The notes under the pieces are model-generated. The model was not told the origin of the DNA, did no database searches, and worked only from the letters and a program-made list of their open reading frames with translations. Position numbers and translations under genes: made by a program. Shown one piece after another: positions 8,882 through 32,943 of a DNA stretch of 35,124 nt. Numbering within the stretch: position 1 is the first letter of the stretch; every line of letters starts with the position of its first letter. The stretch lies in sequence record SRR31147125_1435; one strand, written 5' to 3'.

Positions 8882-8909
8882 TTGACATTTATTATAGAAG
8901 TATTAAATT
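8882..8909 (+). promoter_or_regulatory. Putative sigma70 promoter of the regulator gene
   Basis: Perfect TTGACA (8882-8887), 16-nt spacer, TAAATT (8904-8909), overlapped by the operator palindrome. Confidence 0.55.
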
Positions 8910-8919
8910 GTCAGACAAT
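8907..8919. promoter_or_regulatory. Putative FadR/GntR operator, copy 2 (autoregulatory)
   Basis: Perfect palindrome ATTGTC-A-GACAAT about 30 nt upstream of the GntR gene; fits the FadR-subfamily TxGTxxxACxA pattern. Confidence 0.75.
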
Positions 8920-8948: not shown

Positions 8949-9716
8949 ATGAAATTACAAGAAATAAAAAAAGAAAATTTATCCAAAACAATCATCAGAG
9001 CTCTCGGTGAATACATTCTTAATAACAAGCTTAAATCGGGTGATCGTTTACCAACTGAACAAAAAATAGCCGAAGATTTGAATGTTAGCAGAAGTGCGGT
9101 TAGAGAAGCATTAAAAGTGCTGGAATTTATTGGCCTTGTAAAAAGTAAGCAAAGAACAGGAACCGTTTTGACAAGTAATGGCGTCGAGCCTTTTATGCTA
9201 CCTTATATTTTTGGTATCATTCTGGAAGACACTGAATTAAATCATATTATTCAATTAAGATTGACATTTGAGCAAGGAGCAGCACGTCAAGCTGTATTAA
9301 TGGCCTCGGATGAAGAGCTAGAGATTCTCATGAAAATGGCGAAAGAGCTGGATATGCTAAAAGCTAAAGTTGACTTTGAAGCTAATCCGTCAGAACAGCA
9401 GGAACTTGCTTTTAAAGAAAATAAATTTCATCAAAAACTTTTAGAACTCTCCCACAATCCAATTTATAACCAATTTCGCCATCTGTGGTGCACGTTTTTT
9501 TCCAGAGTGCGCGATTCTGGAGACCTCTCACGCGCATCCAGGACCGGGAAAAATAGATCAGAAGAGCAAATTACTCACCAAAAAATTGTTCAAGCCCTTA
9601 TGGACCGGGATGAGGAAAAAGTTGTAGAACTAATCAAAAATCATCTTTCCTATTGGCTGCAAAATACGGATTCCCTCTCAAAAGAAATGCTGATTCGTTT
9701 AATGAATAAATCCTAA
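8949..9716 (+). CDS. FadR/GntR family transcriptional regulator
   Basis: Winged HTH GDRLPTEQKIAEDLNVSRSAVREALKVLE and FCD domain (RLTFE, FHQKL...SHNP, HQKIVQAL). Confidence 0.93.
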   Translation: MKLQEIKKENLSKTIIRALGEYILNNKLKSGDRLPTEQKIAEDLNVSRSAVREALKVLEFIGLVKSKQRTGTVLTSNGVEPFMLPYIFGIILEDTELNHIIQLRLTFEQGAARQAVLMASDEELEILMKMAKELDMLKAKVDFEANPSEQQELAFKENKFHQKLLELSHNPIYNQFRHLWCTFFSRVRDSGDLSRASRTGKNRSEEQITHQKIVQALMDRDEEKVVELIKNHLSYWLQNTDSLSKEMLIRLMNKS

Positions 9717-9801
9717 TCCACACACTATTTTATTTTTTCAGGAAAATTAAGGTTGCCTTAAACTGAAAGAGAGGAAAGAAAAAAGGTTTTTATTAAATAG
9801 A

Positions 9802-9814
9802 ATTGTCAGACAAT
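9802..9814. promoter_or_regulatory. Putative FadR/GntR operator, copy 3 (upstream of the TBDR module)
   Basis: ATTGTCAGACAAT, part of a 23-bp exact direct repeat of 8906-8928 (here 9801-9823). Preceded by -10-like TAGAAT (9798-9803); no clear -35. Confidence 0.72.
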
Positions 9815-10250
9815 AAAATAATAGAATAATAAAATAATAAAATCGCCACTGACAGTTGAACTTCTTACTAAAATATTACTGCAATAGGTTAAATTAAAAT
9901 ATTATAATATAAACCATATCCTCCTACTTATCTTGCTTTGTTCATGGTACACGCTACAGATTTTTTGTCTAATGAGGTTGAACCATTTAAAGTTGTTGAG
10001 AGCTCTGTTTTTAAAATAGAACTAACAATGAAAAAAAAGCAAAGATGTTAGCTACCACGATAACAGTCGTTCCCACTTTTTCACACTGAGAAATATTGAT
10101 ATTTTTAAGATTTATTTTAAGACCTGAGCTTTAATACTATTCATATTTTCTGCAAATTAGTGATAAACAAATTAGCTTCATGATATTAATTCGCTTCATT
10201 ACATGATGTGGTTTTATGCTACTTTATGCACTAATAGTTGTATTACCTCC

Positions 10251-10305
10251 TCTATCCAAAGTCCCTCTTCTCTTTCATCAGAAAGGAGGAGGGGCTGGGG
10301 ATAGA
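10251..10305. repeat. GC-rich imperfect inverted repeat (REP-like hairpin) in the TBDR leader
   Basis: TCTATCCAAAGTCCCTCTTCTCTTTC-ATCA-GAAAGGAGGAGGGGCTGGGGATAGA, a ~25-bp stem with mismatches and GU pairs in otherwise AT-rich DNA. Confidence 0.6.
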
Positions 10306-10443
10306 ATAAATTGTTAAAAGTTCTAATCATTAATAAAAATTGCTTCTGGTTTATTTTGTCAAATTCTAACTAGTTGATAAATAGCTAAATAAGTCAGGAG
10401 AGCTGTAGAATTAAGAAGTATTAATTAACAGAGGAGGTGCGTT

Positions 10444-13400
10444 ATGAAGAGTCGTTCTTTGCTTGTTCCCCTTATTATTATTTTTATTGCTTCTTTTTCA
10501 TTTGGGGCAACAACAGGAAAGATCGCAGGAGTTGTAAAAGATGCCAGTACAGGTGAGCTTTTACCCGGTGCGAATGTTACTATTACGGATACACAGTTGG
10601 GTGGAGCTACAGATATTGATGGTAATTATTTTATCATTAATATTCCTCCCGGAGTGTATAAAGTTACAACAACAATGATGGGTTATAAAAAACTCACAGT
10701 GGAAGATGTCAGAGTGAGAATTGATCAGACCACTCCCCTGGATGTAGAACTGGATCAGGAAGTCATTTCTGGTGAAGAAGTAACAGTGGTGGCAAAAAAG
10801 CCTGTTGTGGACAAGTATGTAACATCTACCAAAAGCGTCATTAACTCGAATGAAATTCAGAATAGCTATGTGACCAATGTAGAACAAGTGTTGGATATGC
10901 AGCAGGGAGTTAATTACAATGGTGGTATTCGCGGTGGCTTTGGAAACGAGGTTGCTTATTATGTTGATGGTTTGGAGATTCGCGATACAGGTAGTAATTC
11001 CAATTACTCTGTTATACCAACATCGGCCATTGAGGAAATGCAGGTTATGACAGGTGGATATAACGCGGAATATGGTCAGGCCATGGGTGGTATTGTCAAT
11101 ATTGTTACAAAAACAGCAACAGATCAGATCCATGGTTCTGCCGAGTTTCGTTATCGTCCTTCAGGAATTTATCATTGGGGCGATCATATTTACGGTGATA
11201 ATCTTTACGAGTATTCCATCATGAGTAATCCTGACTACTGGGAAGGTATTAATCCCGGGCCTGCTTTTAATGATTTGAGCAATGATGAAAAAGCTCGTAT
11301 ATGGGTTGATGAAACCATGAATGCACCCTGGGTTCAGTCCATGAAGGATTATGATAAAAGATCGGATTATGAAGTGGAAGCAACCCTGTATGGGCCGATC
11401 AGGGACAAATTATCATTTATGGTAAGTGGACTATATAAACGAGGAGCGTCTATTTTACCATCGTTGTTCAAGTATAATCCGGAATGGCATGGAGAGGCCA
11501 ATTTACAGTATGAACTGACATCCAATACCAAGATTTCATTTAAAGGAATGTATGGCGGTTTTAACAATTCCGGTTTTCAAAAAACCAACTATGCTTCTAC
11601 CGAGGATGTCGGGGCGGCAACCACACAACCCAGTACGTATGTTTCCAGTGCATTCTCAAAGAATAAATACTATCTTTTAGGTTCCTGGGGACTCGGCACA
11701 ATGACACCTCCTGAATATGTGCGTATGAAGTCAGGATCATTAAAGGGGACGCATACTTTTTCACCCAGTAGTTTTCTGGAAGTAAAGTATGACTATTTTG
11801 AGTTTGAACGGGATGGCACCTGGAGAAAAGATGATCTGACAGAGCAATATGGGCTGGATCCTCTCGCGATTATTAATGGTGGAACCTATACCGATGAAAA
11901 TGGTGTCTTGCATCGGGCTCCGGATAATTATCCGGAATATATGCAGTTTAATCCCGGTGGAATGCCATGGTATGACAACTGGACTTTTCAATCCTATCCA
12001 CAAATTGTAGACTATGCAAAGACTCGACGACACACCTTGTCGACTGATTTTACCAGTCAGATTAGCAGTGTTCAACAAATCAAAGTTGGAGGAAAGTTCA
12101 ACTATTTTTATACAGACCGCAAGGTTGCCCAGGGACCGCATTATGTTACTTTTACCAATACATGGCAACCCACAGACGCAAATCCGTGGGAGGTCTCCGG
12201 GTATATTCAGGATCGGATTGAAACAGGTGGAATGATTATCAATCTGGGTTTGCGTTTGGATATGTATAATGCCAACATGGTGGTTTCGGATGATATTTAT
12301 GATCCGGCTGGCATAGATTCGGAAACACCCGGAAACGAGTTTCAAAATGTCATCTCTCGTGGAGATCCCTGGAATTGGGAACGGATGCAGGAAGGTGATC
12401 CCTATTCAACAACCACACCGACACAGGTTGCGATTTCTCCAAGAGTGGGTGTTTCTCATCCCATTACAGATAATACGGTTTTGCATTTTATGTATGGTCA
12501 TTTTTGCCAGCGACCGGCATGGACCAAGATCACACCCAATGCAATATATGTCATAGGAAATAATCATTATAGTTATGGTTTTCCTTATGATAATTACCCC
12601 TTTGGTGAAAATTATCTGGATGGATCGGGGACTTATCCAAATAATCGTGGTTACTATTGGAACGGAAGCGGTGCGGGAAATCCCTGGCTGGAATATGAAA
12701 AATTTATTCAATATGAAGTGGGATTTGAACAAAATATCCTGGATAAATTACGCCTTGATGTGACCATGTATTATAAAGATGGTAAAAACCTGACATCTGG
12801 CGGCATCCGGACAGAAGAATCTGCTATTGATAATTACGGTACATACACGACCTCGAGAGTTCGCCTGATAGCTGACCGCGATCTTGGTCCGGCACAGGGG
12901 GCAGGAAAAACAGGTAGCTTTGTTGTACCACAAAACAATGTCTGGCAGGATGTGCGTGGACTCGAGTTTACCCTGCAATCGCAACTTCAAAAGTATTTCA
13001 ATGCCCGTCTTGATTACAATCTTTCCTTCTCACAGACAGGACTCTATGGTGTTAGTAATGCCTATCGACCGGGTGAGGATGGAACGCAATATGCGTATAA
13101 TACCCGCTTTGGTGCTAATAACAAAGATTATGGAAATAGTTCCAACAATAATGAAAATTGGAATCCGAATAACAGTGTTAAATTGACATGTACACTCTTT
13201 ACTCCACATGAGTTTGGACCTGTCCTGGGAAAATTTCATCCATTGGGAAACTTTAATGTGAACTTTCATTATACCTGGGCACAGGGAAGGCGTTATACCT
13301 ACCATTCGCAGGAAGAAGGCGATTTTTCAACGGAACCCAATAACCGACGCTGGGAAGGCTATCACAATAGCAATTTAGCTATCTCCAGAAGGCTACAGTT

Positions 13401-13626
13401 AACAAAAGGAATTAATGCCATTTTTTCAATAAATGTCACTAATTTATTCAACCAAAAACAATTGAGATTACCTTCAAATCTGACCAATTGGCATGAGCAA
13501 GGTATTCACAGTCCGGTAACCATTGGAAGTGGTGATTATCAGGAAATCAGAGAAGATGAATGGAGAATGTACAATTTTAGTCAATTGCCTAGAATGATTT
13601 ACTACAATTTGGGAATAGAGTTTTAA
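10444..13626 (+). CDS. TonB-dependent receptor with N-terminal carboxypeptidase-regulatory-like domain
   Basis: GGAGGT RBS; signal peptide. N-domain TGKIAGVVKDASTGELLPGANV...NIPPGVY. Plug motifs IRGG...YYVDG and AIEEMQVMTGGYNAEYGQAMGGIVNIVTK. Barrel motifs NLGLRLD, SPRVGVSHPIT and NLFN; terminal Phe. Confidence 0.93.
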   Translation: MKSRSLLVPLIIIFIASFSFGATTGKIAGVVKDASTGELLPGANVTITDTQLGGATDIDGNYFIINIPPGVYKVTTTMMGYKKLTVEDVRVRIDQTTPLDVELDQEVISGEEVTVVAKKPVVDKYVTSTKSVINSNEIQNSYVTNVEQVLDMQQGVNYNGGIRGGFGNEVAYYVDGLEIRDTGSNSNYSVIPTSAIEEMQVMTGGYNAEYGQAMGGIVNIVTKTATDQIHGSAEFRYRPSGIYHWGDHIYGDNLYEYSIMSNPDYWEGINPGPAFNDLSNDEKARIWVDETMNAPWVQSMKDYDKRSDYEVEATLYGPIRDKLSFMVSGLYKRGASILPSLFKYNPEWHGEANLQYELTSNTKISFKGMYGGFNNSGFQKTNYASTEDVGAATTQPSTYVSSAFSKNKYYLLGSWGLGTMTPPEYVRMKSGSLKGTHTFSPSSFLEVKYDYFEFERDGTWRKDDLTEQYGLDPLAIINGGTYTDENGVLHRAPDNYPEYMQFNPGGMPWYDNWTFQSYPQIVDYAKTRRHTLSTDFTSQISSVQQIKVGGKFNYFYTDRKVAQGPHYVTFTNTWQPTDANPWEVSGYIQDRIETGGMIINLGLRLDMYNANMVVSDDIYDPAGIDSETPGNEFQNVISRGDPWNWERMQEGDPYSTTTPTQVAISPRVGVSHPITDNTVLHFMYGHFCQRPAWTKITPNAIYVIGNNHYSYGFPYDNYPFGENYLDGSGTYPNNRGYYWNGSGAGNPWLEYEKFIQYEVGFEQNILDKLRLDVTMYYKDGKNLTSGGIRTEESAIDNYGTYTTSRVRLIADRDLGPAQGAGKTGSFVVPQNNVWQDVRGLEFTLQSQLQKYFNARLDYNLSFSQTGLYGVSNAYRPGEDGTQYAYNTRFGANNKDYGNSSNNNENWNPNNSVKLTCTLFTPHEFGPVLGKFHPLGNFNVNFHYTWAQGRRYTYHSQEEGDFSTEPNNRRWEGYHNSNLAISRRLQLTKGINAIFSINVTNLFNQKQLRLPSNLTNWHEQGIHSPVTIGSGDYQEIREDEWRMYNFSQLPRMIYYNLGIEF

Positions 13627-13686
13627 ATTCTGAACCTTGTAAATCAGACAACCTTCAGAATGACATTAAAGAAAGGAATTAATGCA

Positions 13687-15828
13687 ATGAACAATAAAGG
13701 ATATTTCCCACAAAAGGTACGCTATCTGTTATTCATGCCTTTTATGTTGATCCTGTTGTCCGTAGGTTTGGTACTTGCGGATGTTTCACCAAAAACGTAC
13801 GGTCTTTCTCGTGGAAAGTTGTGGTGGTCTGCAGTTTCGGGCGGGCTTATGACGGATCGATCACCATCTTTTGGTGTTGCAGGTGATGCATATCCGGGTA
13901 AATTTGGCGGTAGCTCCAGTTTTACCGGAGTAGGTGGAACCGCATTCAGCGTCGTCGGTGTTGTTGATAATCAGCCCTTTTCATGGGGACACATTGATAT
14001 GAACTATGAAACGGCGATTGATGTCCAGGATCAGGGAATGAGAACGAATTACAATTTTGAGATATATGGCACTAATGTCGCGGAAGAAGAAATCTGGTGT
14101 ATTGGTACATTGACTGGAGATTCTCCACCAATACCCGTTAAAATCACATTAAAAGTCCGAAGCCGTGCGTGGGGTTTGCCCAAATATGATGATTTTATTA
14201 TCACCGAAATCACCTTGATCAATGCGGATACGAGACCGATTTATAATTTCTATGCAATTGATGGAAAACGGACCATGACCCCGGTTGGATCTACCAGTAA
14301 GCTCGATGATGAATACATCTGGGACTCCAATAGAGAGGTTTTTGTTTTTTATGATGCTGAAACGATTTCCGAGGCGACCGGCCAGGCCATTAATTATACG
14401 ATTGCTCCCGGAGATGTAACTGGAGATGTTGGTGATCCCGGAAATATTAGTACGGCGGGTAGTATTAACTATCAATTGTATGCGTCGGCAGTATGTGCTA
14501 TTGGATATCCCAGAGTAACACCACTGGTTGATGTTCAAACAGCCATTATGGGTAATGGTGGTAACATATTTGGGGAAGGTAATTTACCTGTGAGCCAAAC
14601 TGAGACTATAGAGGCATATCCGGGTAATACTGGCCAATTACAGGCCTGGAGTAATTGCGGCTGGCTTAATCAACCCAATGCTGCAGACCCGATGGCTCCG
14701 ATTCCTCAGTTGTTTAAATATCCAAATCCTAATATGAGCTGGAGAGAGGCAAAAAATGCCAATGAACCTAATGCAGGTAATTTATACGAAAGAGGCACAC
14801 CCCAAATGATTTTTGGTATTGGTCCTTTGACACTTCAACCCGGCGATTCATTGTCGTTGACTCGAATTGTCTGTGCCGGAGATATGGATCCAAATATTTC
14901 TATGCGTGGTGGATTGGAAGCAACGAAAATGCTGGATCTCGATTATGCTTCTGCAGATGAGGGTGCCACCAATGAGCATGTTTCTATTAAAAATTTAAGG
15001 ACAAACTGGGATGCGGCTTTAGAATTAATAAATAATAATTACGCTGTTTTGGATAATGTACCACCACCGACCTGTGGTGCTCCGCCAAAAGTTACCTACA
15101 ATCAAGAGTATTATGAAAATACTGGCAATCCTCTGGAGGTAGAACAATTTTTGGGAGAGATGACAGGTGATTTAGTGGGTGCTGAATCCGCGATACAGCT
15201 GACCTGGGATGCAGTTCATGTGAATTATACGGATCCGATCACGGGTACAGATGATTTCAGTGGATACTATATTTATCAATCTGATATCAGTTTTAAGGGA
15301 CCATGGACGAAAATAGCAACGGTGAGCAAAGGTGAAGCTCAGAATGCCGTCTCCGGAGATCGAATTACTATGGCCTTTCCTGTAAAAGCGGGTGTTCCCT
15401 ATCGTTATGCTGTTACGTCGTTTGATACGGATGGAAATGAGAGTGCGTTGACCTGCTATAACTATGAGGCTTATACAACAAAAAGAAGTGCAAGCAACGA
15501 TTTCAGTCAAGTTCGAATCATGCCTAATCCATTCAAACAACGTAGTGGATTCCTGGACACAGGTGAATATAAAAGGCTGACATTTGTTAATATTCCCTCC
15601 AAATGTACTATTAAAATTTATAATCTGGCTGGTGAATTAATGAAATCCTTAAATCATGATGATGGTACCGGTGAAGAGGCCTGGGGATCAAACCTTGGGA
15701 CCGGAGATTATATGTTGACGGAGTATTTTAGCAATGTAATGCCGGGTCTTTATATTTATCATGTTGAATCCCATGTGTCTGGCCATGAGGGTGAAACCGC
15801 AGTTGGAAAGTTTGTAATTATTAAATAA
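13687..15828 (+). CDS. Secreted protein of unknown function with an FN3-like domain and a T9SS type-A-like C-terminal sorting domain
   Basis: AAAGGA RBS before ATG 13687; SPI signal ending VLA-D, no lipobox Cys. FN3-like IQLTWD...FSGYYIYQS...YRYAVTSFD. CTD-like MPNPF...IKIYNLAGELMKSL...PGLYIY...GKFVIIK. Confidence 0.75.
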   Translation: MNNKGYFPQKVRYLLFMPFMLILLSVGLVLADVSPKTYGLSRGKLWWSAVSGGLMTDRSPSFGVAGDAYPGKFGGSSSFTGVGGTAFSVVGVVDNQPFSWGHIDMNYETAIDVQDQGMRTNYNFEIYGTNVAEEEIWCIGTLTGDSPPIPVKITLKVRSRAWGLPKYDDFIITEITLINADTRPIYNFYAIDGKRTMTPVGSTSKLDDEYIWDSNREVFVFYDAETISEATGQAINYTIAPGDVTGDVGDPGNISTAGSINYQLYASAVCAIGYPRVTPLVDVQTAIMGNGGNIFGEGNLPVSQTETIEAYPGNTGQLQAWSNCGWLNQPNAADPMAPIPQLFKYPNPNMSWREAKNANEPNAGNLYERGTPQMIFGIGPLTLQPGDSLSLTRIVCAGDMDPNISMRGGLEATKMLDLDYASADEGATNEHVSIKNLRTNWDAALELINNNYAVLDNVPPPTCGAPPKVTYNQEYYENTGNPLEVEQFLGEMTGDLVGAESAIQLTWDAVHVNYTDPITGTDDFSGYYIYQSDISFKGPWTKIATVSKGEAQNAVSGDRITMAFPVKAGVPYRYAVTSFDTDGNESALTCYNYEAYTTKRSASNDFSQVRIMPNPFKQRSGFLDTGEYKRLTFVNIPSKCTIKIYNLAGELMKSLNHDDGTGEEAWGSNLGTGDYMLTEYFSNVMPGLYIYHVESHVSGHEGETAVGKFVIIK

Positions 15829-15867
15829 GTAACGATCTCATTTAGCCAATATGTTCGGAGGTGACAA

Positions 15868-16932
15868 ATGAATATAAAACTATACATGGTGTTCGTCATT
15901 CTGTGCCTTTTCCCAGCTTGCCTTGTTTTAGGTCAAGATGAGCTGCCTGTTGAAATTGGTGCTGGAGTGGAACCAATGGAATTTGAAAAAGTTGGCACAA
16001 CAGGCTGGCAGTTTCTGAAACTTTATACAAATGCCAGGAGTGCCGCCATGGCAGGTATTTCAACAGCAATTAGTCATGGTGATGCTACAACCGTTTTAGC
16101 AAATCCAGCCTCTATTGCCGACATCAATAACATGGATGCTTCTGTAACTAAAATGGAATGGATTGCAGATATTGCTTATAACTCAGCCAGCGTAGTGAAA
16201 AACATGGGCAAGTGGGGTGTATTTGGACTGAGCTTCATTACCTTAGACTATGGTACCATGTATCGAACAAGTATAAATGCCAATACAACAGCCAGTGGCG
16301 TTCCCGATGGAACCTATGATCTGAGTATGGATGAGGGAACCTTCAGTGGAGGCGATCTTGCTATTGGTCTGTCTTATGCAAGACAGGTAACAGACAGGCT
16401 TCAGGTTGGTGGTACAATTCGTTATATCAGTGAAACACTTGATGATGGCCAGGATATTGATTCCAATAATTGGAGCATAGATATTGGCACAGTATACTAT
16501 ACTGGTATAAAGTCATTACGACTTGCCATGCTTGGCAGGAATTTTGGTCCTGATGTTAATTTTACCGGTTATAACGAACAGGTCCAGGTTCCACCTGTAG
16601 ATGTGAAAATGCCGATGCAGTTTTTAATGGGTGTTGGCTATGATCTGATAGAAGCAAGTAATGAAAATCCGCACCTGTTAACCCTTGCAGCAGAATTTGT
16701 TCATCCAAATGATGGACCTGAAAAATTGAACTTTGGTACTGAATATACTTTTAATGGCATGTTCAGTTTGCGGGCTGGTTACAGGGCCAATTATGATGAA
16801 GAAGGTTTGACATTTGGTGCTGGTATTAATATTCATACCGGAGATTTTCGTGTCAAATTTAACTATGCATATGTGGATTTTGGTACTTTTGACTATGTAC
16901 ATCTTTATACTTTGAATGTTGGGTTGGATTAA
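15868..16932 (+). CDS. PorV/PorQ family (UPF0164/FadL-like) outer-membrane beta-barrel
   Basis: GGAGG RBS; signal peptide. Hatch motif KVGTTGWQFLKLYTNARSAAMAG...DATTVLANPASI. Amphipathic strands with DIGTVY, RNFGP, LRAGY and GLTFGAG. Confidence 0.85.
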   Translation: MNIKLYMVFVILCLFPACLVLGQDELPVEIGAGVEPMEFEKVGTTGWQFLKLYTNARSAAMAGISTAISHGDATTVLANPASIADINNMDASVTKMEWIADIAYNSASVVKNMGKWGVFGLSFITLDYGTMYRTSINANTTASGVPDGTYDLSMDEGTFSGGDLAIGLSYARQVTDRLQVGGTIRYISETLDDGQDIDSNNWSIDIGTVYYTGIKSLRLAMLGRNFGPDVNFTGYNEQVQVPPVDVKMPMQFLMGVGYDLIEASNENPHLLTLAAEFVHPNDGPEKLNFGTEYTFNGMFSLRAGYRANYDEEGLTFGAGINIHTGDFRVKFNYAYVDFGTFDYVHLYTLNVGLD

Positions 16933-16957
16933 CAGGAATACTTTTTACCTTTATTAA

Positions 16958-17003
16958 ACTAACAGGCCAATATTTAATAACGTTGGCCTGTTAGTAAATT
17001 TTT
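16958..17003 (+). terminator. Rho-independent terminator-like hairpin closing the TBDR module
   Basis: Perfect 13-bp stem ACTAACAGGCCAA (16958-16970) / TTGGCCTGTTAGT (16983-16995), followed by AAATTTTT. Confidence 0.75.
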
Positions 17004-18711: not shown

Positions 18712-18963
18712 AGAAAGCTCATGTGGCTTTTAAATATAAATGAAAGAAGTTTAAACTGGAAAAATTCCGGCATGATTGAAAAAGATGATCGATATTTATT
18801 AAATAAATAGTTGTATCTATGGGGCATTGGTAGTTTAATTGAGCAGTATTCATAAATCCACTTTTTAGATATTGTTCTTAATTAGATGTTAGTCTATCAA
18901 AAAGAGCTATATCTATTCCAGAATTATTTACTTCACAAACTACATCCTGGAAGGAGTCGTTCC

Positions 18964-21393
18964 ATGATTTTCTCAAGGCAGAAGTGTTTGATTGTTTCAT
19001 TTGGTCTTGTTTTATTTACTACGATATCATTGCTGGCAATGGAGCCCCCATCCAGCAATAAAAGTGTTCAAAAAACAAAACTTACCGTTGTTGTTCCTGA
19101 AAAATCAGAAAAAGCATATGGTATTGCCGGAGAAATTTTTTGCGAGTACTGGGAAAAAGTCACCGGAACACGTCCGAGTCTTGTTAAAGACGATGGCACT
19201 CGTCCTGCCGGTAATATCGTGGTTATCGGCTCGGATGCGGTCAGTCAAATACCTCATAATCTTATCAAGGACGGTTTTCTAGAGCGCTTTAACATACGAT
19301 ATGCTACAGATGATTATCATGTTGTGAGTGTGAAGGAAAATGATGCAAATGTACTGATATTGGCCGGTGGCAGCGGGCGAGCTACCATATACGCGATTTA
19401 CGATTTTTTCCGTCGATATGGTGGGGTGGAATACTTTTGGGACGGTGATGTATTTCATAAAAAAGGCTCAATTGAGATTGAACAAATAAATTTTCATGAT
19501 ACACCGCGATTTGAGTACCGGGGATTGCGTTATTTTGCGCATCGTGGTTTGCACCGTTTTCGGGCAGAGCAATGGAATCTGGAGGACTGGAAGCAAGAGA
19601 TTGATTGGATATTAAAGAAACGGTTCAATATTTTCATGCTGCGCACTGGGATTGACGATCTCTTTCAACGCACGTTTCCAGGTCAGGTACCCTATCCTCC
19701 GGAAGATGCCCTCGATCCCGATGGCGTTCACAAAAGTTACAAACAGCGTACCTCACCCTGGCCGTTAAAATATCGTGGCGATCTTCGTGAACAGGTTTTG
19801 GCTTACGCTTTTGACCGGGGTCTATTACATCCTGCTGATTGCGGCACTATTACTCACTGGTATTCACATACCCCTTCTTCATTCTATAAAAGTTATCCGG
19901 ATTTTCCGGTGGAAAACAAACAAACGGCGGGTTATTTCCAACCAACCGAGCTGGTGTGGGACATTGAGTATCAAAGAACCTGGGATACCTATTGGAATTT
20001 GACAAAAACCAGTATTAAGGAATATGGTGACGAGCAGGCACGAATGTTTCATACGATTGGATTGGCTGAGCGTATGTTTGGCAAAGACCGTCGGGCTAAT
20101 TTTCAGCTAAAATTATATGGACTTCGCAAGACCGAGCAAATGGTTCGAAAAGACTATCCTGATGCTCCTTTATTAATCGGTGGTTGGGATTTTCTGTGGT
20201 GGACGGATAATGAGATCAGAACTTATCTGAACGACCTTGACCCGGAAAAAACAATTATTATGGATTATACCGATGACATGGCCCACCGAAAAACCTACCG
20301 TAACTGGACATATAAGACATTTCCATGGATCTTTGGGCTATTACATTCCTTTGCTGGTAATACGGAAATTCGCGGGAATTATGACCTGTTGAGTGAGCGC
20401 TTGCAGGAGGCAAATGAAGACAGTTATTGCAAGGGATTGATTTACTGGCCGGAGCTTTCTCATAGCGATACATTCGTTTTAGAGTACCTGGCTCTGAACA
20501 GTTGGTCACCTCAAGTATTGGAACCTGGTTATGCCATCTGGCACTTTTGTAAAACACGATATCCGGGTGATATTGCCCTGACCATGAATGATCTCTGGAA
20601 TGATTTTTTGCCCATATCTCAAACAAGTTATTGGGGCAAGCGATGGAAAAAGAATTATGAAGGCAGAACTCCCGGATTTTCCCGACTTGACAGAACAGTA
20701 TTGACAGACCTGAATGAGGATAAATTAGCCTATTTTAGCAAACATTCACAGCTTTATAAAAAAGCCCTTCATCGCGGTCCTGGCGTACTGACAGGTTTGG
20801 CCCAGTTGTGTAAAAATAATTATGAAAATCTATTTTGGCGACGGGATGCTATAGATATCGCCCGAACAATTATTGACCGGGCAATTGCCACCAACAGTAT
20901 GGAACTGGCTGTAGCAATGGAAGCATGGCGACAGGGCACAGAGCAGGCTGAGCAGGTATACGCGCTTGAGAAGGGCAGTGTGGATTTGATGAAAGCTCTT
21001 GCTCAGATACTTGGTGAAAGTGACGAGTTCTCCCTTTATAACAGTATGGAAAAGTTAAAAGCAACACATCCGGTGAATCCGTTCACAGAAGACATCCTTA
21101 AATCCAATTCCGAGAATTCGTATTGCCGGCATCATGTCTATGAGATGGCAGCCTATCTATACCCGAAGGAACTGGAGGCTTTCAATGACTGGGTGAATGA
21201 ACGAATTGAACAGGGGGACCGCAGTGAATGGAAACGCCCCAAAAAGTTTAATGATATTCGTACAAACCTGGAAGATGAATATTACCAAAAGTCTTTAAAA
21301 GAAATGGCACCTTCTCAAAAGCGTTCAGCTAAATCTTTTGCAAAAACATTAAAGAATGTCGCTCAGGTTCTTGAACAGGTGAATGGATTATAA
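18964..21393 (+). CDS. Divergent GH89-like (alpha-N-acetylglucosaminidase fold) hydrolase, paralogue A
   Basis: AAGGAG RBS before ATG 18964; signal peptide. WNLEDWKQEIDW, WIFGLLHSFAGN and KGLIYWPE resemble GH89 WxWxRWExEIDW, WxWCMLHNFGGN and GxGxTxE. N-domain resembles the GH67/GH115/GH20b-type alpha/beta module. Confidence 0.65.
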   Translation: MIFSRQKCLIVSFGLVLFTTISLLAMEPPSSNKSVQKTKLTVVVPEKSEKAYGIAGEIFCEYWEKVTGTRPSLVKDDGTRPAGNIVVIGSDAVSQIPHNLIKDGFLERFNIRYATDDYHVVSVKENDANVLILAGGSGRATIYAIYDFFRRYGGVEYFWDGDVFHKKGSIEIEQINFHDTPRFEYRGLRYFAHRGLHRFRAEQWNLEDWKQEIDWILKKRFNIFMLRTGIDDLFQRTFPGQVPYPPEDALDPDGVHKSYKQRTSPWPLKYRGDLREQVLAYAFDRGLLHPADCGTITHWYSHTPSSFYKSYPDFPVENKQTAGYFQPTELVWDIEYQRTWDTYWNLTKTSIKEYGDEQARMFHTIGLAERMFGKDRRANFQLKLYGLRKTEQMVRKDYPDAPLLIGGWDFLWWTDNEIRTYLNDLDPEKTIIMDYTDDMAHRKTYRNWTYKTFPWIFGLLHSFAGNTEIRGNYDLLSERLQEANEDSYCKGLIYWPELSHSDTFVLEYLALNSWSPQVLEPGYAIWHFCKTRYPGDIALTMNDLWNDFLPISQTSYWGKRWKKNYEGRTPGFSRLDRTVLTDLNEDKLAYFSKHSQLYKKALHRGPGVLTGLAQLCKNNYENLFWRRDAIDIARTIIDRAIATNSMELAVAMEAWRQGTEQAEQVYALEKGSVDLMKALAQILGESDEFSLYNSMEKLKATHPVNPFTEDILKSNSENSYCRHHVYEMAAYLYPKELEAFNDWVNERIEQGDRSEWKRPKKFNDIRTNLEDEYYQKSLKEMAPSQKRSAKSFAKTLKNVAQVLEQVNGL

Positions 21394-21474: not shown

Positions 21475-22914
21475 ATGAAATACATTATTCAGTTAAAGTT
21501 TATTTTTCATTGTTTTTGTTGTGGAGTGCTTGGATTACTCCTGATGATCACCATATGTATGGCTGCAAATCCAGCAAAAACGGATTTGTCGAGCCCGCAA
21601 GCTCGTCCCGCACCGGAATGGTTAACAAAGGGTGTCATGTACCAGATCTCACTGCGATCGTTTACTAATGAAGGTACGTTAGCGGCCGCTACAAAGCGAT
21701 TGCCGTCTGTAGCTGATTTGGGTGTGTCTATCATTTATCTCTGCCCGGTCTTTTTACAGGATGATGATACTCGTCTGGAAACCTGGAGTCCGCGTCAAAA
21801 GGCCTCCGGTGCCAACAATCCCCTGAATCCATACCGTATAATGGACCACAATCGTATCGATCCGGAGTATGGCACAGAAGCGGATTTGCATGACTTTGTA
21901 AAGACCGCTCATGAACTGGGAATGTATGTGCTCCTGGATATGGTCTATTACCATTGTGGCCCCAACTCTGTCCTGTTAAAGAATCATGATTTTGTCCAGC
22001 GGAATGCAGACGGCAGCGTGATTCAGGGTGCATACAACTGGCCCCGACTCAATTTCAAAAACCGTGGTCTAAGAGATTATCTTTTAGCCAACATGGAACA
22101 CTGGGTGAAAGATTTTAATGTGGACGGCTTTCGGTGTGATATGGCGCACAGTGTGTCACTGGATTTCTGGGAAGAGGCAAGTGAGTATCTTGAACCGCGT
22201 CGCTCCGATCTTGTGTTCCTGGCAGAAGGGGAACGCCTGGGTGAGCAGGTCAAAGCATTTGATATTTGTTACGGTCGTACTTGGTATAATGCGGCAGCAA
22301 AAATTCTCATGAACAGTCAACCGGCTTTTTTATTGCGTCAAATGTGGCAAAAGAACCACGATGAAAGACCTCGCGGCGCACGCTTCATTCGTTATACCGA
22401 CAACCATGATTTCGCGAACGATATGCAGCGTCCAGAAACACGGTTTGGTGAACGTGGGGCCTGGGCCATGTCTGTCATTTGCTTTACCCTTGATGGCGTT
22501 CCGTTTCTGTACAATGGACAGGAGATTGGTGACACCTGTCCCCACAGTATCTTTACAAACTGGCCGATTCGCTGGGAGGCTGCCTGTCTGCCGAAGAAGC
22601 AAAAGACTCGTGAATTCTACAAACAACTCTGTCATCTTCGCCGTAGCCACCCTGTGCTATATAGCGGTGATGTCGTCTGGATCGATCACGATTTGCCAGA
22701 TGCTGTGATCGCATTTAAAAGACATCTTGATGACGATGAAATCCTCACAGTGGTTAATTTGTCCAATCGCAAAATCAAGGTTCATCTTGATTTGAACGAG
22801 GGTGCGGCGCTTACAGAAAACCTGTTACTTTCCAGTAATACAGAAATCGTAGTCGTACAGAAAAAAATGATCCTTGAAATGAATGGTTTTGGCTATCTTG
22901 TCGGTCAAAAGTGA
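21475..22914 (+). CDS. Secreted GH13 alpha-amylase-family hydrolase, paralogue A
   Basis: Conserved regions LDMVYYH, DGFRCDMA (nucleophile), FLAE (acid/base) and YTDNHD; GVPFLYNGQEIG; signal peptide. Confidence 0.9.
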   Translation: MKYIIQLKFIFHCFCCGVLGLLLMITICMAANPAKTDLSSPQARPAPEWLTKGVMYQISLRSFTNEGTLAAATKRLPSVADLGVSIIYLCPVFLQDDDTRLETWSPRQKASGANNPLNPYRIMDHNRIDPEYGTEADLHDFVKTAHELGMYVLLDMVYYHCGPNSVLLKNHDFVQRNADGSVIQGAYNWPRLNFKNRGLRDYLLANMEHWVKDFNVDGFRCDMAHSVSLDFWEEASEYLEPRRSDLVFLAEGERLGEQVKAFDICYGRTWYNAAAKILMNSQPAFLLRQMWQKNHDERPRGARFIRYTDNHDFANDMQRPETRFGERGAWAMSVICFTLDGVPFLYNGQEIGDTCPHSIFTNWPIRWEAACLPKKQKTREFYKQLCHLRRSHPVLYSGDVVWIDHDLPDAVIAFKRHLDDDEILTVVNLSNRKIKVHLDLNEGAALTENLLLSSNTEIVVVQKKMILEMNGFGYLVGQK

Positions 22915-23165: not shown

Positions 23166-25805
23166 ATGCGGCGTAAAAACAGTTTTTCTTTGATAGCAGT
23201 TTTCTTTATTTTTGTATTAAATCTCCTGCTTGTTTTTTCATGTACAGAGCAAAAGCAAAAGTTGTTCAGCGAGTTTTTTGATGATGTGTCTTTGCAGGCA
23301 TGGAGTCCGACGACCTGGAAAGTGGCTGAAAATGAGAAACAGCAACTCGCATCAGATGGCAAACAACCATGGATTCTAAGTGGAGATCCGGAGTGGACCG
23401 ATGTTGCGATTGAGGCGGATATACATATACAGTCAGATATGAAACCGTGCGGCCTTTTGGGGCGCTACCAGGATAGCACACATTATTATCTGCTTTGTTT
23501 TGAAGAAGGGTATTTATTTTTAAAACATCACACAGCCAGGATCGGCGGATCCATTTATTCAATTCAGCCGGGTGAAAGCTATAAACTCAAATTGGTTCAG
23601 AGAGGCGGTCTGATCTCGGCCTGGGTTAATGATGAGTTTGTATTCAAAGTGCATGATTATAAAGATGGTATTCCAAGACTAGCCTCCGGCAAAATGGGTT
23701 TGTTTGCAGAGGGACGGGTTGTTTTTGACAATATAACGGTTACAAAAGAATCTCCCTATTCTCTGGAACCCATACCAGCACCGGCTTTCCAGACCACAAA
23801 ATTTCGAAAAGCCGTCTCATTAAACGGTCTGTGGCAATTCACACCGGATGGCAAATCTAAGACAACTTTAAGAGTGCCCGATGTCTGGGAGGGTGCGCCC
23901 GGGTATGATGGATTGAAATCGGCTGTTTATGAAACCACTTTTGATGTGCCTGACGATTATCTCCCGGTGATTCAGCTTGAATTTGAAGCTGTGAACGATT
24001 ACGCGCAGGTCTATATTAATGAAAATCTTGTTGGTGAACACAAGGGCAAGGATCTGCGGTTTGCCCTTGATATTTCCAATGCTGTCAAACCAGGTTCAAA
24101 GGATAATCATTTAAAAGTGCGCGTTTCCGAACTGGATGAATATCATCCCCACGGCTGGTGGAGACGAAAATTTGGCGAATCAAACCTGGGCATTCGCGGC
24201 CACGTATGGCTGACTTCTTATCCTGCTGTATATGTTGAGGATGTTTTTGTTAAAACTTCAACTCGCAAAAACGAAATCACGATTTTCACAACCCTTCGCA
24301 ATTCAGATGGAGGTAAGAAAAGCATTTCTCTTCAACATCTAATCCGTGGACAAGACGGCCGAATGGCCTTGTCGTTTGCCTTACCACAGATTTTTGTCAT
24401 TAATGCCAATTCTGATACGACCGTGAGTTGGACTCAAAAATGGGAGGATGCACATTTATGGTGGCCGGATGATCCTTATCTCTATACACTGCAGTCGCGA
24501 CTCTATGAGAACAAAAAATTGCTGGATGAGGATCAGGAATGTTTTGGTTTTCGTGAAGTCTGGACCGAGGGAACCCAATACAAGTTGAACGGAATCCGAT
24601 TGAATCTGCGTGGTGACAGTGTTGTTGACCATGGCATCCGTATCGCCAATGTCATTTATGCCAGTGTTATCGATCACCAGCAGGAAGGATTTTATGACTA
24701 TTTTATGACCCGTGAAGGTATGGAGAAGGCTGTCGAAGGCATGCTGGACATGAACTTTAATACAGTTCGAACCCATATGGGTCCCGCATTGCAGACGTTT
24801 TACGAGGTGTGCGATGAAAAGGGATTGATGATAACCTGTGAAACAGATTGTTATGGATCGGGAATGTATAATGATTATCCGGAGGATGAATGCCAAGAAG
24901 GTCCTGATGGGAAATCACTCATGGAAAATACCAATCAATGGATTAAAGAATTTGTCAAACAGTTCAAAAATCACCCTTCCATTGTGATGTGGTCAGCCAG
25001 CAACGAAGCTCAGGCCAGAGGCAGAAATGATTGCTGGGATCTGGATGCTCTGACACAGATGTTAAAGGCAGAAGATGACACACGGTTGGTTATACATCAC
25101 CGCGATCAGTTGTCAGAGGATGGCTATGTCTTTCATTATACCTATAGCCATAACACCCCGGATCTTCCGGATAACCTTTATACTAATAATCGAAACCAAA
25201 AGGCGGAAAATGCGCCCAGTGGCGAAGGGGAATTTTTCTGGGTCTATGACTGGCGTAAATACAATGGTGGTGCGGCTGAGGATTGGCGACAAAAAGTTAA
25301 GGGACAGGGTTATCTGACCCGTGGATATCGATATGACAATTATGCCTATATTCGACCCTATCGCATGAACTGGGGTTGGAAGTGGAAACACGCTGCAGGA
25401 TGGAATCTGCATGAACAATATGAGATCATTCAGAAAAGCATGGCGGCAGTGGCGGTTTATGATAAAGAGTATGATGATTTATATGATAACCTGTTGGAGC
25501 CACCGGATTTACCTACAGTCAAAGCGGGTTCTCTAGTCAATCGGACCCTGATTGTCTATAACGATGAGTTTCATGGAGAAGAGGTTCATATCAAATGGCA
25601 AGCTCGAATTGATAAAAAGATTATCGATTCCGGTACGTTTACAGAAAAAATTCCACTGGGAGAGTATCTCGAAAAATCCATTGATATCAAAATTCCGGTG
25701 GGGCAGATTGATAAAAAAATGGTGCTGGCATTGCAAAGCTTTAAGGACGGTGAGCTAAAGTATCAGGATGACACTGATTACATGTTTCTCATAACAGAGA
25801 ATTAA
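23166..25805 (+). CDS. GH2 family beta-glycosidase, probable lipoprotein with an extra N-terminal beta-sandwich domain
   Basis: Lipobox-like LLVFS-C. Motifs SLNGLWQF, LEFEAVN, LWWPDDPYLY, FGFREV, RTH, CDEKGL, NHPSIVMWSASNE (acid/base); likely nucleophile in GEGEF. Confidence 0.88.
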   Translation: MRRKNSFSLIAVFFIFVLNLLLVFSCTEQKQKLFSEFFDDVSLQAWSPTTWKVAENEKQQLASDGKQPWILSGDPEWTDVAIEADIHIQSDMKPCGLLGRYQDSTHYYLLCFEEGYLFLKHHTARIGGSIYSIQPGESYKLKLVQRGGLISAWVNDEFVFKVHDYKDGIPRLASGKMGLFAEGRVVFDNITVTKESPYSLEPIPAPAFQTTKFRKAVSLNGLWQFTPDGKSKTTLRVPDVWEGAPGYDGLKSAVYETTFDVPDDYLPVIQLEFEAVNDYAQVYINENLVGEHKGKDLRFALDISNAVKPGSKDNHLKVRVSELDEYHPHGWWRRKFGESNLGIRGHVWLTSYPAVYVEDVFVKTSTRKNEITIFTTLRNSDGGKKSISLQHLIRGQDGRMALSFALPQIFVINANSDTTVSWTQKWEDAHLWWPDDPYLYTLQSRLYENKKLLDEDQECFGFREVWTEGTQYKLNGIRLNLRGDSVVDHGIRIANVIYASVIDHQQEGFYDYFMTREGMEKAVEGMLDMNFNTVRTHMGPALQTFYEVCDEKGLMITCETDCYGSGMYNDYPEDECQEGPDGKSLMENTNQWIKEFVKQFKNHPSIVMWSASNEAQARGRNDCWDLDALTQMLKAEDDTRLVIHHRDQLSEDGYVFHYTYSHNTPDLPDNLYTNNRNQKAENAPSGEGEFFWVYDWRKYNGGAAEDWRQKVKGQGYLTRGYRYDNYAYIRPYRMNWGWKWKHAAGWNLHEQYEIIQKSMAAVAVYDKEYDDLYDNLLEPPDLPTVKAGSLVNRTLIVYNDEFHGEEVHIKWQARIDKKIIDSGTFTEKIPLGEYLEKSIDIKIPVGQIDKKMVLALQSFKDGELKYQDDTDYMFLITEN

Positions 25806-25911: not shown

Positions 25912-27354
25912 ATGAAAATTTCTAGTATGTTAAAATTGCTCGTGAACAATTTAATCTGCACTGTGCTTGTTTTGTTATTGGCGACCACTGTTAGTGTAGC
26001 TGCTGAACCATCGGAAACTGATTTGTCGAGTCTAAACGCACGGCCTTCTCCTAAATGGCTGACACAGGGTGTCATGTATCAAATTGCGCCGAGATCGTTT
26101 ACTGACGAGGGGACTTTGAAAGCGGCTGCGGAGAAATTGCCGCATGTGGCCGACCTGGGAGCGACCGTGGTTTATCTCCTGCCAATTTTTCTCCAGGATG
26201 ATGATACTCGTCTCGAAACCTGGAGCCCGCGTCAAAAAGCATCCGGTGCCAACAATCCGTTAAATCCATATCGAATTAAGGATTACAACCGTATTGATCC
26301 GGAATACGGCACAGAAGCTGATCTGCATAATTTTGTCAAAAAAGCGCATGAGCTTGGTATGTATGTATTGCTGGATATGGTCTATTATCACTGTGGAAAT
26401 ACTGCTGTTCTGTTAAAGAATCCTGATTTTGTCAAACGTAATGAGGATAACAGTGTCGTTAATGGTAGTTGGAACTGGCCTGAATTGAATTTTAAAAGCC
26501 GTGGATTGCGTGATTATTTATTGGACAACATGGAGCATTGGCTAAAGGATTTTAACGTCGATGGTTATCGTTGCGATGTCGCTGATAGAGTGCCTCTTGA
26601 TTTCTGGGAAGAAGCCCGTGCTCATCTTGAACCGCTCCGTTCCGATCTTGTGATCCTGGCAGAAGGGCATCGTCGACCGGCTGATCAAATTAAGGCTTTT
26701 GATATTAATTATGGATTCTCGTGGTATAGTGCTTTTTTTAATATTATGACGAACAGTCAGCCGGCAACCATATTACATGAGGATTGGAAAAAGAAACATG
26801 ATGAATTTCCTAAAGGTTCGTTGTTTATTCGCTATACAGACAATCACGATATTTCAAACGATGAAAAACGCCCGGAAGTAATTTTTGGTGAAAAAGGTGC
26901 CTGGGCTACATCAGTCATCAACTTTACTATTGACGGCGTTCCGTTCATCTATAATGGTCAGGAAATTGGCGATACTTGTCCACACAGTATTTTTACAAAC
27001 TGGCCAATTCGCTGGAAAGCTGCATGTATGCCCAAAAAGCAGAAAACGCTCAAGTTCTACAAAAAGCTTTGTCAACTTCGACGTAGCCACTCTGCTCTCT
27101 ATGACGGTGAAGTTGTTTGGATTAAACATGACCAGCCTGATGCTGTTGTGGCGTTTCTAAGACGTGACAGTAAAGAAGAAATACTTACAGTTGCCAATTT
27201 GTCAAACCGCTCGCTCAAGGTTCGTCTTGATGTAAAGGACAGCCCGATGTTCATCAGAAACATATTATTGTCCGATCAAATTAAAACTGATCCTGACTAT
27301 GAGCAACTTAACCTGGATTTGGGTGGATTTGGGTATTTGGTGTGCAAAAAGTGA
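25912..27354 (+). CDS. Secreted GH13 hydrolase, paralogue B
   Basis: AGGAG RBS; signal peptide; LDMVYYH, DGYRCDVA, ILAE, YTDNHD. Long stretches identical to paralogues A and C. Confidence 0.9.
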   Translation: MKISSMLKLLVNNLICTVLVLLLATTVSVAAEPSETDLSSLNARPSPKWLTQGVMYQIAPRSFTDEGTLKAAAEKLPHVADLGATVVYLLPIFLQDDDTRLETWSPRQKASGANNPLNPYRIKDYNRIDPEYGTEADLHNFVKKAHELGMYVLLDMVYYHCGNTAVLLKNPDFVKRNEDNSVVNGSWNWPELNFKSRGLRDYLLDNMEHWLKDFNVDGYRCDVADRVPLDFWEEARAHLEPLRSDLVILAEGHRRPADQIKAFDINYGFSWYSAFFNIMTNSQPATILHEDWKKKHDEFPKGSLFIRYTDNHDISNDEKRPEVIFGEKGAWATSVINFTIDGVPFIYNGQEIGDTCPHSIFTNWPIRWKAACMPKKQKTLKFYKKLCQLRRSHSALYDGEVVWIKHDQPDAVVAFLRRDSKEEILTVANLSNRSLKVRLDVKDSPMFIRNILLSDQIKTDPDYEQLNLDLGGFGYLVCKK

Positions 27355-28865: not shown

Positions 28866-29079
28866 CTGCTGTTTGAGAATAAAAGAGACTAATGAACCTG
28901 GAAATCAATTGGTACAAGCATAGATATGAAAAGAGCTAAAGACGGGAAAAAACTTGTATTTGAAACGAATGGGTAGGCAATTTTGAAGGTAAAAAATGAT
29001 TCACGACCACCGTGCATGTATTTTATATGTAAAAGGAATCTTGTTTAAAATAATAAAATGTAACCAATGGAGATATGAA

Positions 29080-32845: not shown

Positions 32846-32943
32846 CCAGCGCAAGAAATAAAACAGAATTATGGAGATGGTCAAGACGAAATGATAACAA
32901 TAAACCGCCGGATCTATCTTGTATATTTTTAGGAGAGCGAAAA

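Follow-up and report, generated by a model that had tools for sequence, protein, structure and literature searches.

Glycan import in the Bacteroidota is described by the textbook SusC/SusD model, which also defines how utilization loci are found in genomes. The sister phyla of the Bacteroidota, polymer degraders that occur in abundance in the ocean as well as in soils and sediments, are largely without SusD, as judged from the five carrier genomes analyzed here, and annotation based on SusCD therefore misses their uptake loci. Which proteins might capture nutrients at the surface of such cells is the question raised by SRR31147125_1435, a stretch of 35,124 nucleotides (here called the window) in which a trio of genes for a TonB-dependent receptor (TBDR), a secreted middle protein, and a barrel of the PorV/PorQ family lies within a glycan locus. 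An initial annotation of the window had interpreted the middle protein as a surface glycan-binding lid or receptor held by its own PorV paralogue instead of by a lipid anchor, in a three-component alternative to SusCD. Our analysis confirms the three-gene unit and partly supports this interpretation. We consider it somewhat probable that the trio is one outer-membrane nutrient-capture unit, a SusD substitute in which a partner protein exported by the type IX secretion system (hereafter T9SS) and held by the barrel feeds the TonB receptor.

The trio is conserved in order and strand and is present in many copies

An array of plus-strand open reading frames (ORFs) spans the window (20 in the ORF list), and the trio lies within it (Table 1). 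The gap between the middle protein and barrel genes is 39 nt, as first annotated. The 60 nt given for the gap after the receptor gene holds if translation of the middle protein begins at an alternative ATG at position 13687, which has AAAGGA 11 nt upstream, and becomes 33 nt from the ATG at 13660. The strong terminator proposed to close the unit was also recovered, as a hairpin of 14 pairs that none of 200 shuffled sequences equaled and that is followed by a short U run (AAAUUUUUG); a pattern scan for terminators did not pick it up.

Scanning genome contigs with single sequences returned no related loci, and a profile (alignment-based) scan of one genome per species returned 60. In 58 of the 60, tblastn with the three window proteins recovered the receptor first, then the partner and then the barrel, all on the same strand, and the two exceptions (L005 and L055) are both cut by contig ends. 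The gaps within the related trios are mostly below 100 nt. This conservation is far beyond chance, and it bears out the mention in the initial annotation of similar triplets in non-Bacteroidota genomes of the Fibrobacterota-Chlorobiota-Bacteroidota (FCB) group. By the labels of their records, the loci come from Latescibacterota (21 loci), Rhodothermales/Rhodothermaceae (19), "uncultured Cytophagia" (5), KSB1 (3), Calditrichota/Caldithrix (2), "Bacteroidota bacterium" (2), Neomarinimicrobiota (Marinimicrobia) (1), Ignavibacteriales (1), and a possibly misbinned "Actinomycetota" (1), with 5 more unlabeled.

The trio also recurs within genomes. Five genomes carrying orthologous trios (G001 to G005) gave 27, 16, 16, 53, and 16 PorV_fam matches, respectively. 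We analyzed the neighborhoods of the matches above the cut-off, 22 in G001 (Latescibacterota) and 13 in G002 (Rhodothermales), by scanning the ORFs with hidden Markov models (HMMs) from the 60 loci. Eighteen of the 22 paralogues in G001 (17 in intact trios and 1 with a split TBDR) and 9 of the 13 in G002 are the third gene of a trio. The middle proteins of these trios are 612 to 1,280 amino acids long, 25 of 26 are without a lipobox, and 17 of 27 gave weak matches to an HMM of the supersandwich domain described below. None of the 27 trio barrels reached the PorV, PorQ, or PorV2 equivalog cut-off, and the barrels outside trios include a core PorV beside PorU (L083, 300 bits) and a core PorQ (L092, 231 bits). 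Pairwise distances among 26 trios are correlated, with a Mantel r of 0.63 for TBDR and barrel, 0.52 for TBDR and tail, and 0.67 for tail and barrel (0 of 2,000 permutations as high); these values would also be given by shared history alone. The correlated distances suggest that trios duplicate and diverge as units. Matches to the SusD family PF07980 in the same five genomes number two in G002, one weak match in G001, and none in G003 to G005.

Three loci and one genome in this set stand out. In one G001 trio (L077, 2234-6503) two ORFs, of 714 and 336 amino acids, take the place of a single receptor ORF, which may reflect a pseudogene or an assembly error. Two Latescibacterota genomes have, some 2.5 kb downstream of the first trio, another one that has diverged much further (L050, 15346-21591; L054, 15444-21687). 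The 7.3-Mb genome G004 (Caldithrix sp., which holds L059) contains, in addition to its 53 PorV/PorQ-family matches, dozens of protein ends that match the PorU tail.

The middle protein combines a predicted beta-supersandwich with an FN3-like domain

The amino terminus of the middle protein is a signal of the signal peptidase I (SPI) type that ends VLA|DV, with no cysteine lipobox, as had been proposed. No Pfam or NCBIfam family was matched save for a subthreshold match to a T9SS C-terminal domain (CTD), with both halves of the protein scanned against Pfam to an E value of ≤10, and a sequence search of the PDB gave nothing meaningful for the protein alone or for a 52-member family profile. A word-indexed search found 18 relatives, annotated as "hypothetical protein" at most. 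Exhaustive searching gave 1,685 matches at an E value of ≤1e-3 and 37 at ≤1e-30, most of the 1,685 covering only residues 510 to 722, approximately, behind unrelated N termini. The FN3-like domain and tail thus form a module that has been reused widely, and what is specific to this family is the N-domain. In the ESM Atlas, only clusters of unnamed "hypothetical proteins" were retrieved (0.92 to 0.93), most commonly from Zixibacteria, Fidelibacterota, and Gemmatimonadota, which we treat as a lead only.

The first full-length model had a predicted local distance difference test (pLDDT) score of 64, too poor for the N-domain, and its Foldseek matches were dominated by pairs of fibronectin type III domains. 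These top matches, together with model strands at residues 511 to 600, agree with the FN3-like domain of the initial annotation; no Pfam fn3 match was found in residues 501 to 617, approximately. Residues 41 to 500 were refolded alone with 52 sequences, giving a pLDDT of 82.8 and a predicted template modeling (pTM) score of 0.88. Aligned with the whole PDB by VIA-align, this model matched best the N-terminal beta-supersandwich of GH94 phosphorylases, cyclic glucan synthase, GH15 glucoamylase, dextran dextrinase, and GH116 enzymes (Z scores of 17.5 to 16 over 260 to 277 residues; root mean square deviation of 3.5 to 4.5). Aldose 1-epimerases followed at a Z score of about 12, the GH174 endo-fucanase 9k1g at 12.9, and polysaccharide lyases at about 11 to 12.6. 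Foldseek of the refolded domain agreed with a supersandwich (probability, 1.00; E value, 7e-7). Sequence identity to the structural matches is 5 to 13%, and the N-domain has large insertions, one of which, at about residues 300 to 332 of the protein, was modeled at low confidence.

On the predicted model, the N-domain belongs to the galactose-mutarotase-like beta-supersandwich fold, which we take to be of the kind labeled "glycoside-hydrolase-type carbohydrate-binding." No catalytic (alpha/alpha)6 domain follows it in the middle protein. Membership of the SusD/RagB family is contradicted by the lack of any SusD match in Pfam or NCBIfam, by a model that is almost all beta, and by the missing lipobox. 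A supersandwich without a catalytic domain, in a protein without Pfam, NCBIfam, or PDB sequence matches to SusD or to an enzyme, makes the middle protein neither a SusD fold nor a recognizable enzyme, which supports the initial interpretation on this point.

A short motif, (T/N/R)R(G/S/A)x(L/F/M)W, stands just past the signal peptide (residues 49 to 55) and occurs in 35 of 60 orthologues. A scan of 29 proteins with the tail from G001 and G002 found it in seven, all of them trio partners (L065, L067, L070, L071, L075, L076, and L088), and it persists in proteins whose N-domains are otherwise diverged.

The C-terminal tail is predicted to dock on the neighboring barrel

In the full-length model the C-terminal tail is a beta-sandwich with strands at residues 619 to 721, and it gave weak Foldseek matches to the tails of PorZ (5m11) and PorU (6za2). 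At an E value of ≤0.01, matches to the PorU model were obtained for 14 of 52 family members, to the PorZ model for 6, and to TIGR04183 for 3. When 28 members were scanned singly (E value of ≤0.05), the matches fell on positions 993 to 1094 of the 1,095 in the PorU model and 661 to 756 of the 757 in the PorZ model; the scores were all weak, at 12 to 22 bits. The claim of a T9SS CTD-like tail therefore stands insofar as the beta-sandwich is collinear with known T9SS tails and its relatives align end to end with those of PorU and PorZ, and fails on the curated type A cut-offs of TIGR04183 and PF18962. We interpret the tail as a sorting domain of the T9SS that has diverged, probably of the retained PorU/PorZ kind. 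Passages of PMC10202324 describe the CTDs of PorU and PorZ as not removed and as staying bound to PorV and PorQ, respectively. None of the 20 window ORFs matched PF18962 at an E value of ≤1e-3, and a purpose-built tail HMM matched the middle protein alone among them, in keeping with the annotation that no complete hydrolase of the window carries a CTD. In the five carrier genomes, SprA scored above its cut-off in four and full-length PorU in three.

The barrel passes the general PorV/PorQ model NF033709 with 176.4 bits (cut-off, 90) over positions 1 to 324 of 326, which upholds its assignment to the PorV family. It falls below the equivalog models for PorV (NF033710, 53.9 bits; cut-off, 250), PorQ (NF033711, 102.7 bits; cut-off, 220), and PorV2 (30.9 bits; cut-off, 325). 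A profile of 24 barrel orthologues matched Flavobacterium johnsoniae PorV (6h3i_F; E value, 4.7e-5), and no PorP/SprF model was among the NCBIfam matches of the barrel at an E value of ≤0.1. On these scores the barrel is classed as a separate paralogue, distinct from core PorV, PorQ, and PorV2.

The complex of the barrel (residues 23 to 354) with partner residues 505 to 722 was predicted by a program that did not use the supplied alignments. The interface score (ipSAE) was 0.86, and the best of three controls reached 0.33; the complex passes the docking mark, as did 51 of 78 solved complexes but only 2 of 108 mismatched pairs. The runs share at least 84% of contacts, with a partner pLDDT of at least 73. 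Contacts involve tail residues 619 to 632, 652 to 661, 687 to 701, and 715 to 722 and barrel residues 41 to 52, 99 to 102, and 128 to 138, and they include positions that are invariant in the alignments. The docking of the CTD on the PorV-like barrel expected in the initial annotation was thus obtained, and the tail is predicted to dock on the barrel encoded next to it.

The receptor scores as a TonB-dependent receptor that differs from SusC

The receptor begins with a CarboxypepD_reg-like N-terminal extension (PF13620, 63.9 bits), and its plug matches PF07715 with 42.4 bits (cut-off, 23.9). Against the SusC/RagA model TIGR04056 it scored 66.7 bits, with a cut-off of 368, and only profile positions 2 to 395 of 981 were aligned. 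Residues 131 to 238 weakly matched models of FepA and of siderophore receptors. Pfam models of the barrel gave no match, and a barrel is inferred because of the 1,060-amino-acid length and the 54 aligned orthologues. By sequence, the receptor matched only a carboxypeptidase D domain in the PDB and nothing beyond the N-terminal domain. The HMM scores place it as a TonB-dependent receptor and not as SusC. No SusD family was matched by any of the 20 window ORFs (Pfam, E value of ≤1e-3).

The trio lies among degradative enzymes and a probable regulator

Upstream of the trio, the window encodes a GH10 protein, an SMP-30-like protein, a GNAT protein, an S15 peptidase, an SDR protein, and a GntR/FCD-family protein, which is the probable regulator of the locus; downstream lie a GH20 protein, two NAGLU-like proteins, three GH13 proteins, a GH2 protein, two ORFs without an assignment, and a second GH10 protein. 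The hydrolases carry signal peptides and would act in the periplasm after import.

The flanks of 11 orthologous trios were also scanned (103 of 121 ORFs called in 14 loci, with L007, L016, L060, and one long ORF left out). They encode sulfatases, GH127, GH29-like, and GH3 proteins, CBM96 domains, a 3-keto-disaccharide hydrolase, sugar transporters, and an S15 peptidase, along with regulators of the LacI, GntR, or ECF-sigma/FecR type. The trio is constant and the flanking enzymes vary, as with SusCD. The expected adjacency to carbohydrate-active enzymes (CAZymes) holds for flanks with degradative enzymes and sugar transporters and breaks down in three loci that lie beside housekeeping genes.

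TABLE 1 Features of the three-gene unit and its control region in the window
Feature	Position	Strand	Details
Near-palindromic 11-mer TTGTCAGACAA, candidate operator	8908-8918		Exact match, 31 nt upstream of the GntR/FCD gene
GntR/FCD-family transcription regulator	8949-9716	+	PF00392, 59 bits; PF07729, 53.6 bits
11-mer TTGTCAGACAA, second exact copy	9803-9813		Within the 727-nt spacer upstream of the receptor gene
TonB-dependent receptor	10444-13626	+	1,060 aa
Middle protein, secreted	13660-15828	+	722 aa
Signal peptide, SPI type, no lipobox	13660-13779	+	Residues 1-40; alternative start 13687; cleavage VLA|DV
N-domain, predicted galactose-mutarotase-like beta-supersandwich	13780-15159	+	Residues 41-500; model and structural search
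FN3-like beta-sandwich linker domain	15160-15510	+	Residues about 501-617; model strands 511-600
Putative C-terminal T9SS-type sorting domain	15511-15825	+	Residues about 618-722 (~105 aa); closest to the retained PorU/PorZ kind
PorV/PorQ-family barrel	15868-16932	+	354 aa
Intrinsic-terminator-like hairpin, end of the three-gene unit	16958-16995	+	ΔG, -22.1 kcal/mol; z, -5.85

The operator that had been placed before the trio may correspond to the two exact copies of TTGTCAGACAA. The sequence would fit the T.GT...AC.A pattern of FadR-type GntR operators, and the pair may be operators of the GntR/FCD regulator; an operator role is plausible, with the receptor-side copy standing 630 nt from the receptor ATG. 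The spacer that holds this copy (9717-10443) is unusually long and very AT rich, with runs of AATAA-type repeats, and contains no ORF of 100 amino acids or more. Only weak, AT-rich inverted repeats were found in it, and a promoter scan did not rise above shuffled sequence (28 found versus 25.3 expected). No RNA data set is listed as containing the window, and the one DNA data set listed as containing all of it may be the source sample. No Rfam family was matched at its gathering score in the window, and positions 9650 to 10500 gave chance-level matches only; a receptor controlled by a vitamin or metal riboswitch is thus not indicated.

Several features of the neighboring genes were recorded. 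The three GH13 paralogues (21475-22914, 25912-27354, and 27429-28865) have near-identical signal peptide regions and C termini, and the NAGLU-like paralogues (18886-21393 and 28996-31494) are also alike, a sign that genes may have been duplicated inside the locus. No single known glycan is indicated by the combination of GH13, GH89-like, GH20, GH2, and GH10 proteins. The N terminus of the GH2 protein (23166-25805) ends LLLVFSC, a possible lipobox, and this protein may be the sole lipoprotein hydrolase of the locus. Two ORFs that overlap by 4 nt (31532-32845 and 32842-33975) matched no Pfam or NCBIfam family, and the first has a signal peptide. In L040 (4518-6304), genes for an ECF sigma factor and a FecR-type anti-sigma factor lie directly upstream of the trio receptor. 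This arrangement is the trans-envelope signaling layout known from the polysaccharide utilization loci of Bacteroidota.

A nutrient-capture unit is favored over the alternatives

In the mechanism that we favor, the middle protein would cross the inner membrane by the Sec pathway, using its SPI signal, and would be exported by the T9SS via its C-terminal domain. It would be neither cut nor lipid-linked, and its tail would stay on the adjacent, private PorV/PorQ-type barrel, which would hold the protein at the cell surface without a lipid anchor, as PorU is held on PorV and PorZ on PorQ. The supersandwich N-domain, borne on the FN3 stalk, would capture a substrate, most likely an oligosaccharide or glycan, and pass it to the co-encoded TonB receptor, the role that SusD or SusE/F-type proteins have for SusC. 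The signal-peptide-bearing, tail-less hydrolases would then finish degradation after import. In a bolder form of this proposal, receptor, partner, and barrel would make a stable three-protein machine, with the barrel replacing the lipid anchor and the barrel-tethered supersandwich serving as the moving lid. Such a machine would be a lipid-independent, T9SS-dependent counterpart of SusCD and the main means by which Latescibacterota, Rhodothermales, KSB1, Calditrichota, Marinimicrobia, and Ignavibacteria import glycans and nutrients. We advance this form tentatively and hold it to be rather doubtful; if true, it would explain the 16 to 53 PorV-family matches in the carrier genomes.

Several observations weigh against a capture unit. 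The strongest is that the contact between receptor and partner is inferred and stands outside the docking model. The docking pass does not tell which barrel paralogue binds the tail, and it may partly reflect likeness, since solved structures of PorV with cargo exist (entries 8gl6-8gln are listed together with the PorV chain 6h3i_F). The window tail itself lies under both CTD cut-offs (PF18962, 16 bits with a cut-off of 27; TIGR04183, 13.8 bits with a cut-off of 23), and the family profile of the middle protein matched no solved structure by sequence. The fold shared by the N-domain shows no function. Many of its acidic and aromatic residues (W171, P174, Y176, D178, D232, and E377 among the invariant positions) are invariant across loci with different enzymes, which is less readily explained by a binding site for a particular substrate than by a role in structure, docking, or catalysis. 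The Mantel correlation would be the same from a shared duplication history alone, and some orthologous trios (L014, L058, and L059) adjoin housekeeping genes and not CAZymes.

The likeliest alternative is that the trio encodes a cargo and its private shuttle only: the barrel would be a dedicated T9SS helper, as PorP/SprF is for type B cargo, and the middle protein would be a glycan-binding or glycan-processing protein, at the surface or released, that is co-regulated with the receptor and forms neither a complex with it nor a lid. The tail-barrel docking is the sole interface with model support, and the presence of an FN3 stalk hints that the protein stands off from the membrane. Genes for type B CTD cargo beside their own barrel genes are also known from passages in PMC10202324 and PMC11205867. 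However, a barrel with a tailed protein was almost never found without a TBDR directly upstream: 27 of the 35 paralogues in G001 and G002 are in trios, and 5 of the 8 that are not score best as core PorV, PorQ, or PorV2 types. The fixed TBDR-partner-barrel order in 58 of 60 loci and the divergence of the receptor in step with the other two proteins point beyond co-regulation, and we judge a private shuttle alone to be unlikely. A less probable account makes the middle protein a surface enzyme of an undescribed family, such as an endo-glycanase, lyase, or epimerase built on the supersandwich, which would be anchored by the barrel and cut polymers to importable size. Its fold also occurs in catalytic or catalysis-supporting settings (aldose 1-epimerases, the GH174 endo-fucanase 9k1g, and polysaccharide lyases), many acidic residues are invariant across the family, and the window holds no other tail-bearing endo-enzyme. 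Against this, the best matches (Z scores of 16 to 17.5) are to N-terminal domains of multidomain enzymes, and in the GH94, GH15, and GH116 types these domains are not the catalytic barrels. No Pfam, NCBIfam, or PDB sequence match links the middle protein to any enzyme, and the same N-domain family stands beside very different enzyme sets, which leaves an enzymatic role improbable.

Finally, the trio could be an export unit in which the TonB-dependent protein works outward, like Oar for PopC in Myxococcus, or helps to assemble the tailed protein and the barrel. The receptor presumably resembles Oar in having the same kind of CarboxypepD_reg N-terminal domain and a similar length, and a TonB-dependent transporter that is required for protein secretion is described (PMC6434023). 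The carrier genomes, however, have SprA, the T9SS translocon (four of five), and so need no second export channel, and what the loci encode besides the trio includes enzymes of degradation, transporters for sugars, and regulators of the sugar type. Moreover, a 22-strand barrel cannot pass a folded protein of 700 residues. We therefore regard export as very improbable and retain the nutrient-capture unit as the working model.

If the trio is the equivalent of SusCD, it would provide a marker for nutrient-uptake loci in the sister phyla, give the expanded PorV family a second function, and link type IX secretion with TonB-dependent import. This reading is directly testable, as Rhodothermales carry the trio.

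Comparison with known systems

No published description of the trio was found in the literature searched, a scope that left aside subscription journals and supplements, and the portions consulted of the Caldithrix genome paper (PMC5317091) and of a T9SS review (PMC11205867) do not mention it. The trio may nevertheless have been recorded in a cultured organism. Table 1 of PMC6987092 lists, in the xylan locus of Rhodothermus marinus (genes Rmar_1070-1072), a TonB receptor, a hypothetical protein with a Por sorting tail that is predicted to be cell attached, and another hypothetical protein. These genes may be the same trio, which passes unremarked in the part of that paper considered here; no further paper naming Rmar_1070-1072 was found in the literature searched.

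Among the nearest published ideas are the lipoprotein "alternate lids" described in Bacteroides for TonB-dependent transporters other than SusC (Price, Deutschbauer, and Arkin, bioRxiv 10.1101/2023.03.17.533168). As presented in the sections of that preprint concerned, these lids are lipoproteins, without a PorV-like barrel and without a T9SS tail. A parallel for the gene arrangement is provided by type B CTD cargo and its PorP/SprF-like barrels, as in SprB/SprF of Flavobacterium johnsoniae, where, according to passages in PMC10202324, the cargo gene lies beside its own barrel gene and the tail is probably uncleaved; the same passages suggest that cognate PorV-like barrels protect tails from cleavage. 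The trio differs from SprB/SprF in its barrel family, its tail type, a role that is not that of a gliding adhesin, and the involvement of a TonB receptor. PorU-PorV and PorZ-PorQ offer the model for retention, in that a protein exported by the T9SS retains its CTD, and a barrel of the PorV/PorQ family keeps it at the surface (PMC10202324); the tails of the middle-protein family align best to those of PorU and PorZ. Unlike these single-copy core parts of the secretion system, the trio barrels are extra paralogues that fall under the PorV and PorQ cut-offs, and their genes in every case follow those of a TonB receptor and its partner.

In fold, residues 41 to 500 of the middle protein resemble the N-terminal supersandwich domains of GH94, GH15, GH116, and GH65 enzymes and the aldose 1-epimerases, with the differences that large insertions are present and that, unlike in these glycoside hydrolases, no catalytic (alpha/alpha)6 domain follows.

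In genetic organization a close counterpart is SusC/SusD (RagA/RagB). In both systems, the gene for a receptor with CarboxypepD_reg and plug domains is followed by that for a noncatalytic surface partner, and the pair resides within glycan-degrading loci with a dedicated regulator, is present in many copies per genome, and evolves apart as one unit. The trio partner is predicted to be all beta and has an SPI signal and a T9SS-type tail, whereas SusD is a lipoprotein of helical fold. The trio receptor falls far short of the SusC model (66.7 versus 368 bits on TIGR04056), and no SusD-family match accompanies it in the window. In contrast to SusC/SusD, the trio includes an obligatory third gene, which encodes a PorV-like barrel.

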